Assembly (NCBI GenBank): GCA_030697445.1
Contig: JAUYPY010000051.1
Span: forward strand, 1-32,519
Direction of reading: 5' to 3'
DNA: 32,519 nucleotides
Source: a bacterium
GTDB lineage: Bacteria > Patescibacteriota > Minisyncoccia > Phycocordibacterales > UBA10002
The translations under genes and the position numbers were made by a program. Numbering within the stretch: the stretch's first letter is position 1; every line of letters begins with the position of its first letter. Shown one piece after another: positions 8,402-17,520 of this stretch. The notes below the pieces were generated by a model. It was not told the DNA's origin, did no database searches, and saw nothing but the letters and a program-made list of their open reading frames with translations.

Positions 8402-9327
8402 AGTGTATCGTTTCTTTGCAGATATTCGAGTGTTGCGGCGACGAGCGTTTTTACATCCTCAAACCGCCCCTCTTCCGTAGAGCCAAGCACGGCGACGGCA
8501 ATCGGCTTGCCGACTCCCGCATCAAATATAATTGCCAAATTGCCTCCAGCAAGATCAGTGAGTCCTGTTTTTGACGCGCGGAGCATGGGGATGTCCGCTA
8601 CAATCTTGTTTGTATTGTCCGCCTCGTGCCGGTTGCCGTTTTCTTCAGTAAACAACGAAGTTGCCTTGGTGGTCGCATCAAAAAGATCTGGATGCATGTG
8701 ATACGCAAGGGCAATCAAGCGTACCACATCATGCGCCGAACCGAACCCCCCGGCAACACCTTCGCTTTCATCCAATCCCGTCTCATTCAAAAAATACATA
8801 CTCTGGAGTCCGAGCGCATTTGCTTCTTTATTCATTTCCGTAATAAATTGTCCTCTGTTTTCCGACTCAATGCCACTGGTTGAAATAAAGCCTCCGCCGA
8901 CAGCCGCAGCCGCGGCTACACCGTCATTTGAAGATGCGGTCAGCGAAAACGAAAGCAGGTCTTTGAGCGCCCAGTTTTCATTACGCATAGGGACAAGCGC
9001 ATAGTTTGGCGCAATAGAAAGCGCAGTTATTGCAGTCATTATTTTCGTAAGCGACGCAAGCGGAAGCTGGGTGTCCGAATTTCTCGCAAAAAGCGTCTGA
9101 CCAGTCGCGACATCAAACACTTCTACCGCACGCGCGGCGAGCACCACTTCATCAAACGGAGATGGAGCAAGGGCCGCACCTCCTATACCTGCATACGCCG
9201 TATTAGGAGTGCTTGTTTCAATCAACTGCAGAGAAGATGGCGAGGATATACCAGATAGCGTTCCAATTAACGCGCCTGCAAAAGCGAACGAAGTAAAAAA
9301 ACGGAAATGTGATTGCGATTCATTCAT
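8398..9327 (-). CDS. serine-type D-Ala-D-Ala carboxypeptidase (PBP5/S11-like)
   Basis: SLTK (SxxK), SSND (SxN) and KTG motifs. Signal-like N-terminus from MNESQSHFRFFTSFAFAGALIG. ATG at 9325-9327. Confidence 0.85.
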   Translation of the reverse strand: MNESQSHFRFFTSFAFAGALIGTLSGISSPSSLQLIETSTPNTAYAGIGGAALAPSPFDEVVLAARAVEVFDVATGQTLFARNSDTQLPLASLTKIMTAITALSIAPNYALVPMRNENWALKDLLSFSLTASSNDGVAAAAAVGGGFISTSGIESENRGQFITEMNKEANALGLQSMYFLNETGLDESEGVAGGFGSAHDVVRLIALAYHMHPDLFDATTKATSLFTEENGNRHEADNTNKIVADIPMLRASKTGLTDLAGGNLAIIFDAGVGKPIAVAVLGSTEEGRFEDVKTLVAATLEYLQRNDTL

Positions 9328-9865
9328 CTTGTTTATTCTCTGTGTTAGCGGCAAACGCGTCAAGTTCTTTTTTCGCCTCCGAATAATCGGGTAATTCTTC
9401 AACGCGCGATATGCCTAAGTGTGCGAGAAGCTCAAGTGTTGGTTCGTACACAAACCCGCGCGCATCTTTCGGGTTCGCTTTGCGCGCGACAAGCCCGCGC
9501 GCCGCGAGTTCGCGCAAAGTAAAAGTTGAATTAACACCGCGAATCCAATCAAGCTCACGGCGCGTCGCCTGTCCGCGATAAAGCACAACCGCAAGCGCTT
9601 CCGCACCCGCTTTCCCCACATCGCGGGCGAGTTCTTCGCGCAACAATTTTTCTATGATCGCGCCAGCTTCGGGCGCTGTGCGGACTTCCACCTCCTCACC
9701 CGCGCGCACAAGCGATACCCCGCGCCCCACAAGCTTTTCTTCAAGAGTTTTTAACCCTTCTTCTACCGCTTTTTTATCAACACCAAGAAGCTCCACGAGC
9801 CGCTTCACGCTCGTTGGCTCGGCTTTGAAAAAGAGAACGGACTCTAATTGTGCGTCTAATGTCAT
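9320..9865 (-). CDS. scpB: segregation and condensation protein B
   Basis: Typical ScpB winged-helix repeats (LESVLFFKAEP...; ALAVVLYRGQATRRELDWIRGVNS). Confidence 0.9.
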   Translation of the reverse strand: MTLDAQLESVLFFKAEPTSVKRLVELLGVDKKAVEEGLKTLEEKLVGRGVSLVRAGEEVEVRTAPEAGAIIEKLLREELARDVGKAGAEALAVVLYRGQATRRELDWIRGVNSTFTLRELAARGLVARKANPKDARGFVYEPTLELLAHLGISRVEELPDYSEAKKELDAFAANTENKQDE

Positions 9866-9896
9866 AGCATTTTAACTACTTAAGATTAACATAATT

Positions 9897-9905
9897 TTAT
9901 CCACA
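9897..9905 (+). promoter_or_regulatory. TTATCCACA box (exact DnaA-box consensus) between the scpB start and the plus-strand promoter
   Basis: Exact 9-mer, 9 nt upstream of TTGCTT. A homologous box occurs at 11583-11591. Confidence 0.4.
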
Positions 9906-9914
9906 ATTCGTAAC

Positions 9915-9943
9915 TTGCTTTTTGTATTCCACTCTGTTACCAT
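9915..9943 (+). promoter_or_regulatory. candidate sigma70-type promoter facing MazF-like gene #1
   Basis: TTGCTT-17nt-TACCAT, then TTGTATT. It is positionally homologous to the stronger promoter at 11600-11627. Confidence 0.4.
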
Positions 9944-9949
9944 TGTATT

Positions 9950-10030
9950 TACAAGTGGCTTCGGCCTTACCCCCGTAAGGGGGAGAAAGTCAAGAAAAGC
10001 CGTCAGAATAATTTTCTGGCGGCTTTTCGT
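9950..10030 (+). ncRNA. candidate ~80-nt antisense sRNA (three hairpins) overlapping the 3' end of MazF-like gene #1
   Basis: GGC-UUCG-GCC (9957-9966), CCCCC-GUAA-GGGGG (9970-9983) and a terminator hairpin plus UUUU (9995-10027). Ends are inferred from the promoter and terminator only. Confidence 0.35.
9995..10027. terminator. bidirectional intrinsic terminator overlapping the stop codon of MazF-like gene #1
   Basis: 10-bp stem GCCGTCAGAA/TTCTGGCGGC flanked by AAAA and TTTT, giving a U-tract on both strands. Confidence 0.7.
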
Positions 10031-10386
10031 ATGCGATCAAACATATCTTTTTCAAGAAACCCTATCTTTTCAACTAAACGCCGCGTATCTACAACGCGAA
10101 TTTGTGAAAGAATTGCCGACGCTTTTTTCCCTTGTATTTCTCCAACAGGAATACGAAGAATATGTTGGCGGAGTGATGTCGTCAGCGGTATAACCATGCA
10201 AGTATCGGCTCCAAACCCTCGAACAATAACAACCGGCCTAAGAAAAAACTTTCCGCTTCCATCTTGTTCGGAACCGATATTAACGCCAAGGCGACACCAC
10301 CATATTTCACGGACGGTATACAAACGCGGCTGTTCTGCGTGCGTTCGTTTTTTATCTTTATTCCATAGGTCAAAATCTTTTTGCAT
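10003..10386 (-). CDS. PemK/MazF-family toxin-like protein #1 (127 aa)
   Basis: REIWWCRLGVNIGSEQDGSGKFFLRPVVIV aligns with the MazF/EndoA core (GDVYxADLxPxxGSEQxGxRPVLVI). Carries a 25-aa N-terminal extension, DFDLWNKDKK. Confidence 0.75.
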   Translation of the reverse strand: MQKDFDLWNKDKKRTHAEQPRLYTVREIWWCRLGVNIGSEQDGSGKFFLRPVVIVRGFGADTCMVIPLTTSLRQHILRIPVGEIQGKKASAILSQIRVVDTRRLVEKIGFLEKDMFDRIRKAARKLF

Positions 10387-10404
10387 ACTTGGATTTATGT
10401 ATAC

Positions 10405-10833
10405 TCAGTCTTCCTGGAACCTTGCGACTTCCTTAGTTAAAAGATTTTGAAAATCGGCAACTTTATGTGCATCTAAATTTCTATAATTCGCTCGTATGTA
10501 GTTAGAGAAAGATAGCAACTCTTTATCTAATTTAGAGTCAGTCGGTTTTTCCCACACCGTCTCCCAGATTTCATCGTTGCACCAATCTTTTTTATCAAGA
10601 TCAAGCCACTTTATATGTTCCACATTCTCGAATTTCCCGTTATTCAAGGCGATAGTATCCCATTCAGCTGTAATTTTTGCGCCATGTGACATTTCTTTTT
10701 TATCTTGTAGCACCTGCTTAAGCACGCGATGTCCTTTGTATGTATTGTCAAACGAAATAGATTCTCTGTCGTTCAGAGGTACGGATATAAAATACCCATT
10801 GACACTGTCTCCGTCGTCAATATTAATTTTCAT
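10405..10833 (-). CDS. hypothetical acidic Trp-rich protein (142 aa) in the antitoxin position
   Basis: ATG lies 8 nt after the scpA stop and the ORF ends 18 nt before MazF-like #1. Visibly AT-richer than its neighbours. No recognisable MazE/AbrB/RHH motif. Confidence 0.6.
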   Translation of the reverse strand: MKINIDDGDSVNGYFISVPLNDRESISFDNTYKGHRVLKQVLQDKKEMSHGAKITAEWDTIALNNGKFENVEHIKWLDLDKKDWCNDEIWETVWEKPTDSKLDKELLSFSNYIRANYRNLDAHKVADFQNLLTKEVARFQED

Positions 10834-10841
10834 ATGTTTAT

Positions 10842-11570
10842 CTACTGATATTTCGGAACGCCAACTTGTTCCGTCTCCATCAGTATATCGTCAAAATGCT
10901 TTTCTTGCGTTACGCGAATCGCGCCGCGCCGGATAAGTTCCAGCATTGCGAGAAAGCTCACGATAATTTCTTTCTTCGCCTTCGCGCCGAGCGCTCCGGC
11001 GAAATCGCGGAAGCCCAAACGCAGGCACGCCTGAATACGGCCGGTCAGACGCGCAATCGTCTCGTCCAATGAAAGCACTTTTTCCACAATAACTTTTGGA
11101 AGAACCGCCGCGCGCGGCAAGTTCATAAGAAGTGAGCGGAGCGTTTCCGAAAGCGACGCGAGTGTCGTTGACGGAGAAGTGGTAAAAAGCGGCGCGCGCT
11201 CGCGCGCCTCCAAAGAAAAGGAGATGCTTTTTCCGAAGCGTGTGCGAATCTTCCCCGCGTACCCGCGCACTTTCTGATACAACGCGAGGCGCGCTTGGAG
11301 TTCAGAAATATCGGTTTTCTCTTCTTCGGTCAATTCAAGCAAGGGCAAAAGCGACTTTGATTTGATTAAAAGAAGCGTTGAGGCAACCAAGATAAAACTT
11401 GCGCCTTCGGCCATAGGAAACTCCTCAAACTGTTTCGCGTACAAGATAAAATCATCGGCAACGGAAGCGAGCGATACATCGCTTACATGCAATTTCCGTT
11501 CTTCAATCAAATCCAAAAGCACATAAAGCGGTCCCTCAAACTTTTCATGCTTTACGGTAAATGCGGACAT
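10842..11570 (-). CDS. scpA: segregation and condensation protein A
   Basis: FEGPLYVLLDLIEERKLHVSDVSLASVADDF N-terminal signature and C-terminal winged helix. Confidence 0.9.
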   Translation of the reverse strand: MSAFTVKHEKFEGPLYVLLDLIEERKLHVSDVSLASVADDFILYAKQFEEFPMAEGASFILVASTLLLIKSKSLLPLLELTEEEKTDISELQARLALYQKVRGYAGKIRTRFGKSISFSLEARERAPLFTTSPSTTLASLSETLRSLLMNLPRAAVLPKVIVEKVLSLDETIARLTGRIQACLRLGFRDFAGALGAKAKKEIIVSFLAMLELIRRGAIRVTQEKHFDDILMETEQVGVPKYQ

Positions 11571-11582
11571 AAATATATAAAG

Positions 11583-11591
11583 TTATCCACT
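11583..11591 (+). promoter_or_regulatory. TTATCCACT box (8/9 DnaA-box consensus) between the scpA start and the plus-strand promoter
   Basis: 8 nt upstream of TTGACA, the same relative position as the box at 9897-9905. Confidence 0.4.
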
Positions 11592-11599
11592 GGTATTAT

Positions 11600-11627
11600 T
11601 TGACAGTAAATACGGTTCTGGTATACT
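11600..11627 (+). promoter_or_regulatory. strong sigma70-type promoter facing MazF-like gene #2
   Basis: TTGACA-16nt-TATACT, then TAATTGTATT and the hairpin module. Confidence 0.55.
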
Positions 11628-11633
11628 TAATTG

Positions 11634-11700
11634 TATTAGGGCTTCGGCCTCCGAGACCCCGCCGCAAGGCGGGGTCGATTGTTATATAAATTTGCTAAAT
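11634..11700 (+). ncRNA. candidate antisense sRNA convergent with MazF-like gene #2 (3' end undefined)
   Basis: GGC-UUCG-GCC (11640-11649), then GACCCCGCC-GCAA-GGCGGGGUC (11655-11676) followed by GAUUGUUAU. It runs into the toxin stop codon (11682-11684). Confidence 0.35.
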
Positions 11701-12065
11701 GCTATCTGCACTTTTTTAAATGCAGATTCAGGTATCATATCAACTTTACGCAATAATCTGTAAGTACTAATAACGCGGCTTTGAGTAAGCTTTATCCACA
11801 CTGTCCCAAACTTAACTTTTACGGCACAATGAAATTCATCTTTCTTCTCTCTACTGGTTATCGGTAAAATAAGAAGGGTTTCCGTATTATAAACCCGAAG
11901 TACCAAAACCGGTCGTTCAAAATTATCGTGCTTTCCATCTGTTTCCGCTCCGATATTCGCTCCAAGCGCACACCACCACACCTCGCGTGGATGCGCGTAT
12001 GCCATACCTGCTTGCATATGTATCTTCTTCTTTTCCCCGTTCCACTGATCAAAATCTTTATTCAT
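11682..12065 (-). CDS. PemK/MazF-family toxin-like protein #2 (127 aa)
   Basis: REVWWCALGANIGAETDGKHDNFERPVLVL core and the same DFDQWNGEKK N-terminal extension. About one-third identical to #1 by eye. Confidence 0.75.
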   Translation of the reverse strand: MNKDFDQWNGEKKKIHMQAGMAYAHPREVWWCALGANIGAETDGKHDNFERPVLVLRVYNTETLLILPITSREKKDEFHCAVKVKFGTVWIKLTQSRVISTYRLLRKVDMIPESAFKKVQIAFSKFI

Positions 12066-12091
12066 TTTCCTCGATACTTAACTTAAAATCT

Positions 12092-13492
<1,401 letters not shown>

Positions 13493-13496
13493 ATTA

Positions 13497-14444
13497 TTAG
13501 TAGAGTTTAACACCAATCTTTTCACGCACGAGGTCCATTTTCGTTTGTGCGAGCGCGCGGGTGCGCTCGCCTCCGTCTTTGAGAACTTTGAGCACAGCAC
13601 CCGTGTCGCCGGCGATTGTCGCGCGCTTCGCGCGGAGCGGCGCGATGAAGTTTTTCATATCTGCAATCAGTGCTTCTTTGAGATCTTTATATTTTCCCGC
13701 TTTTTCTTCATATAATTTTTCCAATTCCTTTTCCGAACGGAAGAGCTTATGGATTTCATACACATTTTTCGGAACGCCACCAGATGAGTCCGTTACAATA
13801 CTCATTGCTAATTTCTCTATATCGCTGTCTTCTGCAAAAAGCGGAATCGTATTGCCGTAACTCTTGCTCATCTTTTGCCCGTCAATGCCGGGTACAACCG
13901 CGACTTCTTTCATAATGTGCGCGTTTGGCAACTTAAATGTTTCTCCGTAAATACGGTTAAACTTTTCCGCAATATCGCGCGCAATTTCCACATGCTGTTT
14001 TTGGTCCGCGCCGACCGGCACCACATCCGTATCGTAAAGCAAAATATCCGCCGCCATAAGTACGGGGTAATTGAAAAGTCCGACACTCGCCTCTTTCTTT
14101 TTCGCCACGGCATCTTTGTACGCATGCGCGCGCTCTAGATATGGGACCGTAACGAGACAGTCAAAAATCCAAGCAAGTTCTGCGTGTTCAGGAATATCTG
14201 ACTGTTTGTAAAGCAATACTTTTTCCGGATCCAATCCGATCGCAAGATAATCAATTGCGACATCGAGCGTATTTTGCTTCAATTCCTCGGAATTTTGTAC
14301 AGTTGTTAAGGCGTGATAATCAGGAATAAAAAAGAAGCATTCGTATTCATTTTGTAATTCCACGAATTGACGCATCGCTCCAAAATAGTTGCCAATGTGG
14401 GGCCTCCCAGTAGGTTTAATACCAGAAAGAAGTATTTTTTTCAT
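13497..14444 (-). CDS. trpS: tryptophan--tRNA ligase
   Basis: GRPHIGNY (HIGH motif) and KMSKS motifs. ATG at 14442-14444. Confidence 0.92.
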   Translation of the reverse strand: MKKILLSGIKPTGRPHIGNYFGAMRQFVELQNEYECFFFIPDYHALTTVQNSEELKQNTLDVAIDYLAIGLDPEKVLLYKQSDIPEHAELAWIFDCLVTVPYLERAHAYKDAVAKKKEASVGLFNYPVLMAADILLYDTDVVPVGADQKQHVEIARDIAEKFNRIYGETFKLPNAHIMKEVAVVPGIDGQKMSKSYGNTIPLFAEDSDIEKLAMSIVTDSSGGVPKNVYEIHKLFRSEKELEKLYEEKAGKYKDLKEALIADMKNFIAPLRAKRATIAGDTGAVLKVLKDGGERTRALAQTKMDLVREKIGVKLY

Positions 14445-17448: not shown

Positions 17449-17520
17449 TACCCCCAAGAGGAATTGAACCGCTATCTCAAGCTTCGGAGGCTTGCGCTCT
17501 ATCCGTTGAGCTATGGGGGC
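17449..17520 (-). tRNA. tRNA-Arg (anticodon CCG)
   Basis: Cloverleaf folded by hand: acceptor GCCCCCA/UGGGGGU, D arm GCUC-AACGGAUA-GAGC, anticodon arm CAAGC-CUCCGAA-GCUUG, T arm AGCGG-UUCAAUU-CCUCU (one C-U mismatch), discriminator A. No CCA is encoded. Confidence 0.85.

Follow-up and report, generated by a model that had tools for sequence, protein, structure and literature searches.

Predicted small RNA genes converge on MazF/PemK-like genes in Parcubacteria as candidate antisense regulators

A 32,519-nucleotide (nt) stretch of DNA from a bacterium of the Patescibacteriota (contig JAUYPY010000051.1, assembly GCA_030697445.1) was analyzed; this 32.5-kb stretch is referred to below as the window, and positions are counted within it. 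It carries two paralogous genes for 127-amino acid MazF/PemK-family proteins, toxin #1 and toxin #2, each of which is faced from the opposite strand by a compact hairpin module with its own predicted promoter (loci A and B, respectively; Table 1). Comparison with related loci indicates that these modules are very probably conserved antisense small RNA genes linked to the toxins, belonging to a large and apparently undescribed family. A reading made from the letters of the window alone (the sequence-only reading) had proposed that the same plus-strand module serves both toxins as an antisense RNA partner. All of the motifs that it listed for the two loci were present at their positions, and on folding of both regions the described hairpins formed, with the plus strand slightly more stable than the minus strand.

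For comparative analysis of the module facing toxin #1, orthologs of this toxin were collected from GTDB species-representative genomes, giving 62 loci from many Parcubacteria lineages (56–83% identity to toxin #1), 60 of which were usable. In every usable locus the strand opposite the toxin carries the same set of parts in the same order, here called the A type. These are a sigma-70 promoter (TTGACw, 16–17 nt, TAnnnT), a gap of about 6–7 nt, a core with the consensus AYA(G/A)(U/G)UGGCUUCGGCCUYRCCCCC-GCAA-GGGGGAGAA, a short linker, a hairpin formed from the last 7–8 codons of the toxin, its stop codon and the bases that follow, and finally a U-tract. Promoters matching the consensus at 9 or more of 12 positions were found on the RNA strand in 53/60 loci, compared with 7/60 on the opposite strand and ~17% of shuffled sequences. 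The −10 element ends 12–13 nt ahead of GGC in 43 of the 60 loci, so that transcription is predicted to start at the conserved A of ACA. The promoter hexamers of locus A are weak, yet they are positioned where relatives hold the strongly conserved promoter. A covariance model of the A type (R1), built from 60 other genomes with the window left out, matched positions 9949–10032 (+) with 97.6 bits (E = 6.5e-22), and the fold of predicted small RNA A gave a z-score of −5.85. Its hairpin 3 encloses the toxin #1 stop codon (10003–10005) together with the last 7–8 codons, and a U-G wobble on the plus strand of this hairpin becomes a C-A mismatch on the toxin strand.

The three-helix structure was strongly supported by covariation across the 60 loci. 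Pairing was possible in 95.7% of cells, and double changes were seen in 16 of the 22 pairs (12 of 14 in the terminator helix); none of 500 shuffles matched these values, and controls in which the partner was slid gave 41–62% pairing. RNAalifold, used without a given structure, returned the same three helices with 14/18 pairs compensated. Three independent features favor a predicted RNA read from the window plus strand, antisense to the toxin. G-U wobbles number 84 on the antisense strand versus 24 on the toxin strand. The loop of hairpin 1 is UUCG in 58/60 copies and that of hairpin 2 is GNRA in 47 and UUCG in 2 (49/60 together), whereas both read as ordinary CGAA and UUNC on the toxin strand. 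The antisense strand also folds more stably, both for hairpins 1 and 2 (57/60) and for the whole RNA (52/60). The sequence-only reading had recognized hyperstable tetraloop types on the plus strand alone, which was borne out across the 60 loci, and had allowed that compensatory changes might support only the minus-strand fold; wobbles, loop types and stability instead point to the plus strand.

Mean identity between loci was 85% for the RNA 5′ core, 65% for the toxin coding sequence, 45% for the linker and 38% for toxin third codon positions, which are thus saturated. Based on the first two values, the non-coding core is under stronger constraint than the coding sequence. A hidden small open reading frame (ORF) was considered for the module and rejected, because the alignments, judged by eye, show no conserved start codon and the stem changes are compensatory as in an RNA. 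Neither locus had an Rfam match at the gathering score, and matches with E values up to 10 were sub-threshold, partial and terminator-like. The TTGTATT element that had been taken as common to both loci was not part of the A type, in which the conserved 5′ end is AYA(G/A)(U/G)UGGC; conservation of GUAUUAGGGC was limited to a second type.

This second type (B type) was defined separately, since the A-type model gave only 11.2 bits (E = 0.57) on locus B and the locus was rejected as an A-type member. A search of the flanks of toxin #2 relatives (45–82% identity to toxin #2) and of the loci already collected yielded 17 further distinct copies. In each, a consensus promoter precedes a short AUUA-like leader, which is followed by the invariant GGCUUCGGCCUCCGAG and then by a second hairpin. 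The stem sequence of this second hairpin varies between copies with pairing kept, and its U-rich tail reaches the toxin stop codon. Individual changes include a flip of hairpin 1 from GGC/GCC to GCC/GGC (L151 and L202) and a C-G to U-A change in hairpin 2 (L068), and the ortholog in L063, the closest relative, has an identical RNA core. The antisense strand was the more stable in 15 of 18 copies. At locus B itself the promoter was the best match in an 8-kb scan and is conserved among toxin #2 relatives; hairpin 2 ends 5 nt short of the toxin #2 stop codon (11682–11684), and the U-rich tail enters it. On the toxin strand the sequences have no U-tract after this hairpin, so transcription of the toxin gene should continue through it and yield an mRNA whose 3′ untranslated region (UTR) includes the entire complement of the small RNA.

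The proposal of one module at both loci therefore stands in modified form: A and B are two homologous subtypes that have the promoter, GGCUUCGGCCU and a G+C-rich hairpin 2 in common, and B has two hairpins. The exact sequence GGCTTCGGCC occurs twice in the window, at loci A and B only. Given that the two toxins share just 35% amino acid identity, neutral flanks would not be expected to remain alike, and chance likeness of the two intergenic regions was ruled out by the comparative evidence.

Linkage between RNA and toxin was examined from both directions. Starting from the toxin, the module was present in 60/60 usable loci despite differing neighbor genes. Starting from the RNA, a metagenome scan was carried out with a pattern made of hairpins 1 and 2 only, containing no toxin sequence, and 69 of the 71 matches that had 470 nt or more of downstream sequence (97%) face a PemK gene. 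The two exceptions are the same sequence, found twice, from which the toxin and half of the terminator have been deleted, and a third, shorter case holds a decayed toxin. For the B type, 14/17 copies face PemK, and the remainder face a PBECR3-like nuclease (sub-threshold), a haloacid dehalogenase (HAD) hydrolase and an unknown ORF. The sequence-only reading had envisaged that the hairpins might occur independently of MazF-like genes, which was not the case, and had called for a covariance model with a test of co-occurrence with this MazF subfamily; with the model from 60 loci, RNA type was found to track toxin subfamily. No match to the A- or B-type RNA pattern was found in the IMG/VR viral contigs, and a phage or viral origin was rejected on these grounds.

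Extra model matches accompany PemK paralogs in L004, L005, L006, L009, L022 and L048, and in these loci, as in the window, two or three paralogs often lie close together, each with a subtype-matched RNA. L005 (22–1574) contains an exact tandem duplicate of the toxin–RNA unit as well as a toxin #2-like unit. Several copies have other surroundings. In L042 a B-type copy (~5440, +) faces the PBECR3-like gene, related to Barnase/EndoU/colicin/RelE-like nucleases and scoring 25.2 bits against a cut-off of 30, so the RNA module may partner with another predicted RNase toxin. In L057 (3380–4120, −) the promoter and hairpins 1 and 2 (about 75 nt) are directly duplicated, and the second copy, which is without a terminator, precedes a NUDIX-like ORF (assigned by eye) as if reused as the promoter and 5′ leader of a captured gene. 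L003 (2840–2957, −) holds a complete extra RNA gene with the promoter TTGACT-17-TATCAT, its own terminator and a hairpin 2 fully covaried to CUCUGUC-GCAA-GACAGAG; it lies back to back with a toxin start, converges on a 586-amino acid ORF and is without a toxin of its own.

A DnaA-box-like motif was found upstream of the RNA promoter at both window loci. Perfect or near-perfect matches to the DnaA-box consensus (TTATCCAC[A/T]) were present in 43/156 non-redundant module copies, usually in one orientation, including L014, L015, L029, L030, L036, L052, L063, L080, L098 and others. The motif mostly starts 13–18 nt upstream of the start of the −35 element, where it is 37-fold enriched (60 genome loci, P ~3e-14). 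This placement suggests that DnaA or another factor may control the RNA promoter in a subset of lineages. If so, a DnaA box near −50 in roughly a quarter of copies might couple toxin release to replication status.

Both proteins score above the gathering cut-off of PF02452 (PemK_toxin, 23.1 bits). The AlphaFold2 model of toxin #1 (predicted local distance difference test score 83, predicted template modeling score 0.75) shows a MazF barrel with an additional N-terminal helix at residues 4–16. When this model was compared with the PDB using Foldseek, the top 50 matches were all MazF, EndoA or MoxT (template modeling scores 0.6–0.8), in keeping with the SH3-like barrel of MazF/Kid, and neither ToxN, AbiQ nor any other type III toxin was among them. 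The catalytic Arg (in LRPVV) and Thr (in PLTTS) align with those of Bacillus subtilis EndoA. R50, P67 and T69 are invariant in 49 homologs, and the N-terminal helix has invariant F5, W8 and K12.

No MazE/PemI-like gene adjoins the toxin in the window or in the 60 related loci, in agreement with the protein partner reported as missing by the sequence-only reading. The genes upstream of the 60 orthologs encode proteins of 50–966 amino acids that fall into many unrelated clusters, the largest having 8 members and combining long proteins and fragments; the downstream genes also vary, and toxin #2 directly follows the gene for aspartyl-tRNA synthetase (AspRS). The 142-amino acid ORF upstream of toxin #1, earlier described as unrecognizable, indeed had no match in Pfam or PADLOC and only a far sub-threshold one in NCBIfam (E = 0.014, 14 bits against a cut-off of 225). 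It was rejected as an antitoxin, being a singleton among the upstream genes of the 60 loci; its homologs number only 9, and in three different contexts they occur without PemK, between pheS and pheT or beside CYTH and glyoxalase genes. With no conserved protein antitoxin and the RNA as the sole conserved neighbor, the RNA is most likely the cognate regulator or antitoxin.

From the computed promoter, structure, strand, linkage and MazF fold, and from the lack of a protein partner, we infer that the RNA gene is transcribed, the protein is a toxin and the RNA neutralizes it by pairing. Each MazF-like gene and the small non-coding RNA gene on the opposite strand would form a two-gene unit, in which a sigma-70-type promoter transcribes the RNA toward the 3′ end of the toxin gene. 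An A-type transcript would consist of two hyperstable tetraloop hairpins followed by a terminator stem drawn from the toxin's last codons, stop codon and the bases just beyond, whereas in the B type hairpin 2 would act as the terminator and the U-tail would reach the toxin stop codon. The small RNA would thereby replace MazE as a cis-encoded antisense regulator or antitoxin, pairing with the toxin mRNA at its complementary 3′ end or 3′ UTR and leading to cleavage, decay or reduced toxin output, and the UUCG/GNRA 5′ domain may give it a long life or a protein-binding platform. That the RNA regulates or neutralizes the toxin in one way or another, whether by pairing or by protein binding, is probable. 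A type I-like mechanism, in which the RNA pairs with the toxin mRNA at its 3′ end, is put forward more tentatively and may or may not apply; it is supported by the RNA 3′ end abutting or overlapping the toxin stop codon in both diverged types.

Several points weigh against this proposal. The transcript is predicted from sequence only, and in L003, L057, L042 and L167 an RNA copy lies opposite a gene of another kind or no gene at all. The toxin family is unusually conserved for such a toxin (60–89% identity), so it may serve as a housekeeping RNase instead; a protein antitoxin may also be encoded elsewhere in the genome. Should both transcripts end at their common terminator, they would overlap in the A type by no more than the ~35 nt of the hairpin. 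UUCG and GNRA loops are poor starting sites for RNA–RNA pairing, and a very stable RNA is at odds with the classical picture of a labile antitoxin. Cis-antisense pairing needs no sequence conservation, so the near-invariant GGCUUCGGCCU implies another constraint such as protein binding or stability. Pairing in trans was rejected as well: complementarity between the RNA 5′ domain and the toxin mRNA (−30 to +330) was no greater than expected by chance (mean z +0.37), with no consistent site.

The last observations bear on a type III-like arrangement, in which the small RNA, and especially its invariant GGCUUCGGCCU hairpin, directly binds the MazF-like protein as an inhibitor or preferred substrate, and convergent placement matters only for co-inheritance and terminator sharing. 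Hairpin 1 is near-invariant in sequence, not merely in structure, in both RNA types even though their toxins are only 35% identical; the 85% identity of the core alongside saturated synonymous sites exceeds what cis pairing needs; hyperstable loops fit a stable protein ligand; and the ToxN fold is related to that of Kid/MazF. The lack of above-chance complementarity between the 5′ domain and the toxin mRNA is also as expected for protein binding. This arrangement is a serious rival but appears less likely than type I-like pairing. Against it, the RNA forms no tandem-repeat array and is not located ahead of the toxin gene on the same strand, the fold search places the protein among the MazF proteins with no ToxN or AbiQ in the top 50 matches, and protein binding leaves the strict overlap of RNA 3′ end and stop codon in both types unexplained.

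It is less probable still that the module, as a real small RNA or as a promoter-plus-terminator block, is carried along with the toxin cassette without controlling it, acting as an insulator, a bidirectional terminator with a 5′ stabilizer or a trans-acting RNA with other targets, while the MazF-like protein is a non-toxic or self-limited housekeeping RNase. The duplicated promoter and hairpins before the NUDIX-like ORF in L057, which resemble a portable promoter or leader, would fit this, as would the L167 B-type copy facing the HAD hydrolase, the full orphan copy beside the 586-amino acid ORF in L003 and a protein that is very well conserved with saturated third codon positions. Linkage of 97% motif-first and 100% toxin-first, and RNA types that track toxin subfamilies, argue otherwise, and a plain terminator needs neither a conserved promoter nor two invariant hairpins. 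A purely DNA-level element, whereby the hairpins form an attC-like or repetitive extragenic palindromic (REP)-like recombination or integration site at the edge of a mobile toxin cassette and no RNA gene exists, is very improbable. The unit does occur in many different neighborhoods, the 142-amino acid ORF, toxin #1 and the RNA do sit between scpA and scpB, which are adjacent in L063, and in L057 a direct promoter/hairpin duplication flanks an inserted gene. A cruciform, however, would favor neither strand, whereas the G-U wobbles are strand-specific and the tetraloops of RNA type; −35 and −10 elements are conserved at a fixed distance, the terminator has a U-tract, and neither a linked recombinase nor a match on viral contigs was found.

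The proposed cis-antisense unit combines features of several toxin–antitoxin classes. In the type I systems txpA/RatA and bsrG/SR4 of B. subtilis, convergent antisense RNAs overlap the 3′ end of the toxin gene. The units described here likewise are compact two-gene units without a protein antitoxin, in which a small RNA, predicted to have a promoter of its own, runs toward the toxin gene and overlaps its 3′ end and terminator, so that on sequence grounds a cis-encoded antisense RNA overlaps the toxin transcript. They differ in that the toxin is a soluble 127-amino acid MazF-fold protein and not a small hydrophobic peptide (usually <60 amino acids), the overlap is short (~35 nt or 3′ UTR only) and the RNA 5′ domain is sequence-conserved with UUCG/GNRA loops; with a toxin that is not a small peptide, they are not members of type I. 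In type III systems (ToxIN, CptIN and AbiQ/antiQ) the antitoxin consists of tandem repeats upstream on the same strand and is processed by the toxin. A structured RNA (here a candidate for neutralization), the absence of a protein antitoxin and a MazF-related endoribonuclease fold are common to both, but no ToxI-like tandem repeats were found in positions 9300–12700, and the RNA is single-copy and convergent. Lacking a repeat array, with the RNA off the toxin strand and a protein that groups with MazF, not ToxN, the units are not members of type III. MazF is the textbook type II toxin, with the protein MazE as its antidote. As in MazEF/PemIK, the proteins match PF02452, have the MazF fold and align at the catalytic Arg and Thr; an extra N-terminal helix and the absence of an adjacent MazE/PemI-like gene set them apart, and without a protein antitoxin the units are not members of type II. 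A pemK RNA motif in Firmicutes, attributed to Weinberg et al. 2017, is reportedly a conserved structured RNA upstream of pemK on the same strand.

Antisense RNAs are also encoded at loci with type II-related proteins. SymE of Escherichia coli resembles the antitoxin MazE/AbrB and is repressed by the cis-encoded antisense RNA SymR, an analogous pairing of a type II-derived toxin with a cis antisense RNA in place of a protein; SymR, however, overlaps the 5′ end and ribosome-binding site, SymE is not of MazF fold, and the system is under SOS/LexA control and found in Proteobacteria (PMC1891008). The antisense RNA aMEF at the two-protein mazEF locus of E. coli stimulates mazEF expression and has a poorly conserved promoter (PMC8749433), unlike the strongly conserved promoter and RNA found here without a protein antitoxin. 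RelBE of Mycobacterium tuberculosis is likewise presented as an antisense RNA-regulated "type IIb" system (PMC9325379), and in both cases, as predicted for the units described here, the locus of a type II toxin also encodes an antisense RNA. Literature searches returned no description of a MazF/PemK toxin with a convergent RNA in bacteria of the candidate phyla radiation (CPR).

All genes around both toxins lie on the minus strand, in the transcription order tryptophanyl-tRNA synthetase (TrpRS), AspRS, toxin #2, scpA, the 142-amino acid ORF, toxin #1, scpB, a peptidase and mraY. The nearest relatives of both toxins are annotated in Parcubacteria (Patescibacteria) assemblies, e.g. Taylorbacteria and Kaiserbacteria. 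In L063 the order is AspRS, an ankyrin-repeat gene, toxin #2, scpA and scpB, and the latter two adjoin with a 104-nt gap (2721–2824), whereas in the window they are separated by positions 9866–10841. Based on this adjacency, the 142-amino acid ORF, toxin #1 and small RNA A were inserted between these two genes in the window, and the toxin–RNA unit thus behaves like a cassette whose insertion has interrupted a conserved gene pair. In many toxin orthologs a TATAAT-like box lies 7–12 nt before the ATG, with no Shine–Dalgarno sequence (e.g. window 10387–10410, L004, L013, L016, L028, L044 and L046–L048), which suggests leaderless or very-short-leader toxin mRNAs; in other orthologs the start lies 0–3 nt past the upstream stop codon, a sign of possible translational coupling. 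The sole Rfam match in the window that reached the gathering score was a tRNA at 17449–17520 (−), with 63.4 bits.

Table 1. Positions of the predicted RNA genes, toxin genes and neighboring features in the window
Feature	Position	Strand	Description
scpB	9320–9865	−	
Non-coding gap, locus A	9866–10002		
DnaA-box-like site, locus A	9897–9905	+	TTATCCACA; starts 18 nt upstream of the start of the small RNA A −35 element; optional part of the module
Small RNA A promoter (predicted)	9915–9943	+	−35 TTGCTT (9915–9920), 17-nt spacer, −10 TACCAT (9938–9943)
Small RNA A (predicted)	9951–10032	+	A type, about 82–83 nt; ACAAGU leader, three hairpins, AGAA linker, U-tract
Hairpin 1, small RNA A	9957–9966	+	GGC-UUCG-GCC
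Hairpin 2, small RNA A	9970–9983	+	CCCCC-GUAA-GGGGG
Hairpin 3, small RNA A	9994–10028	both	Bidirectional intrinsic terminator, 15 bp, common to small RNA A and toxin #1
Toxin #1	10003–10386	−	127 amino acids, MazF/PemK family, extra N-terminal helix; PF02452 E = 1.8e-14, 54.3 bits
142-amino acid ORF	10405–10833	−	
scpA	10842–11570	−	
Non-coding gap, locus B	11571–11681		
DnaA-box-like site, locus B	11583–11591	+	TTATCCACT; starts 17 nt upstream of the start of the small RNA B −35 element
Small RNA B promoter (predicted)	11600–11627	+	TTGACA, 16 nt, (TG)g-TATACT; 11/12 match, TG extension
Small RNA B (predicted)	11633–11687	+	B type, about 50 nt; (G)UAUUA leader, two hairpins, CCGAG linker, U-rich tail
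Hairpin 1, small RNA B	11639–11650	+	GGGC-UUCG-GCCU; core GGC-UUCG-GCC at 11640–11649
Hairpin 2, small RNA B	11655–11676	+	GACCCCGCC-GCAA-GGCGGGGUC; doubles as terminator
Toxin #2	11682–12065	−	127-amino acid paralog, 35% identical to toxin #1; PF02452 E = 1.8e-13, 51.1 bits
AspRS	12092–13600	−	
TrpRS		−	
Peptidase		−	
mraY		−	

For these poorly studied organisms, the analysis would add two covariance-supported subtypes of a small RNA family, and it indicates that the annotation "type II toxin-antitoxin system toxin" overlooks the RNA partner. The DnaA-box-like site upstream of the RNA promoter hints at a link between replication control and toxin regulation. More speculatively, and with somewhat less assurance than the pairing mechanism itself, it is conceivable that a widespread and ancient MazF subfamily of the Parcubacteria has lost, or never had, MazE and is controlled solely by the convergent structured RNA. 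This would constitute a hybrid class, with a type II toxin, a type I layout and possibly type III-like binding via GGCUUCGGCCU, perhaps wired to DnaA. As far as the literature searched shows, it would be the first RNA-controlled MazF, and types I, II and III would become harder to tell apart if a large conserved MazF subfamily had a convergent structured RNA as its only conserved partner.

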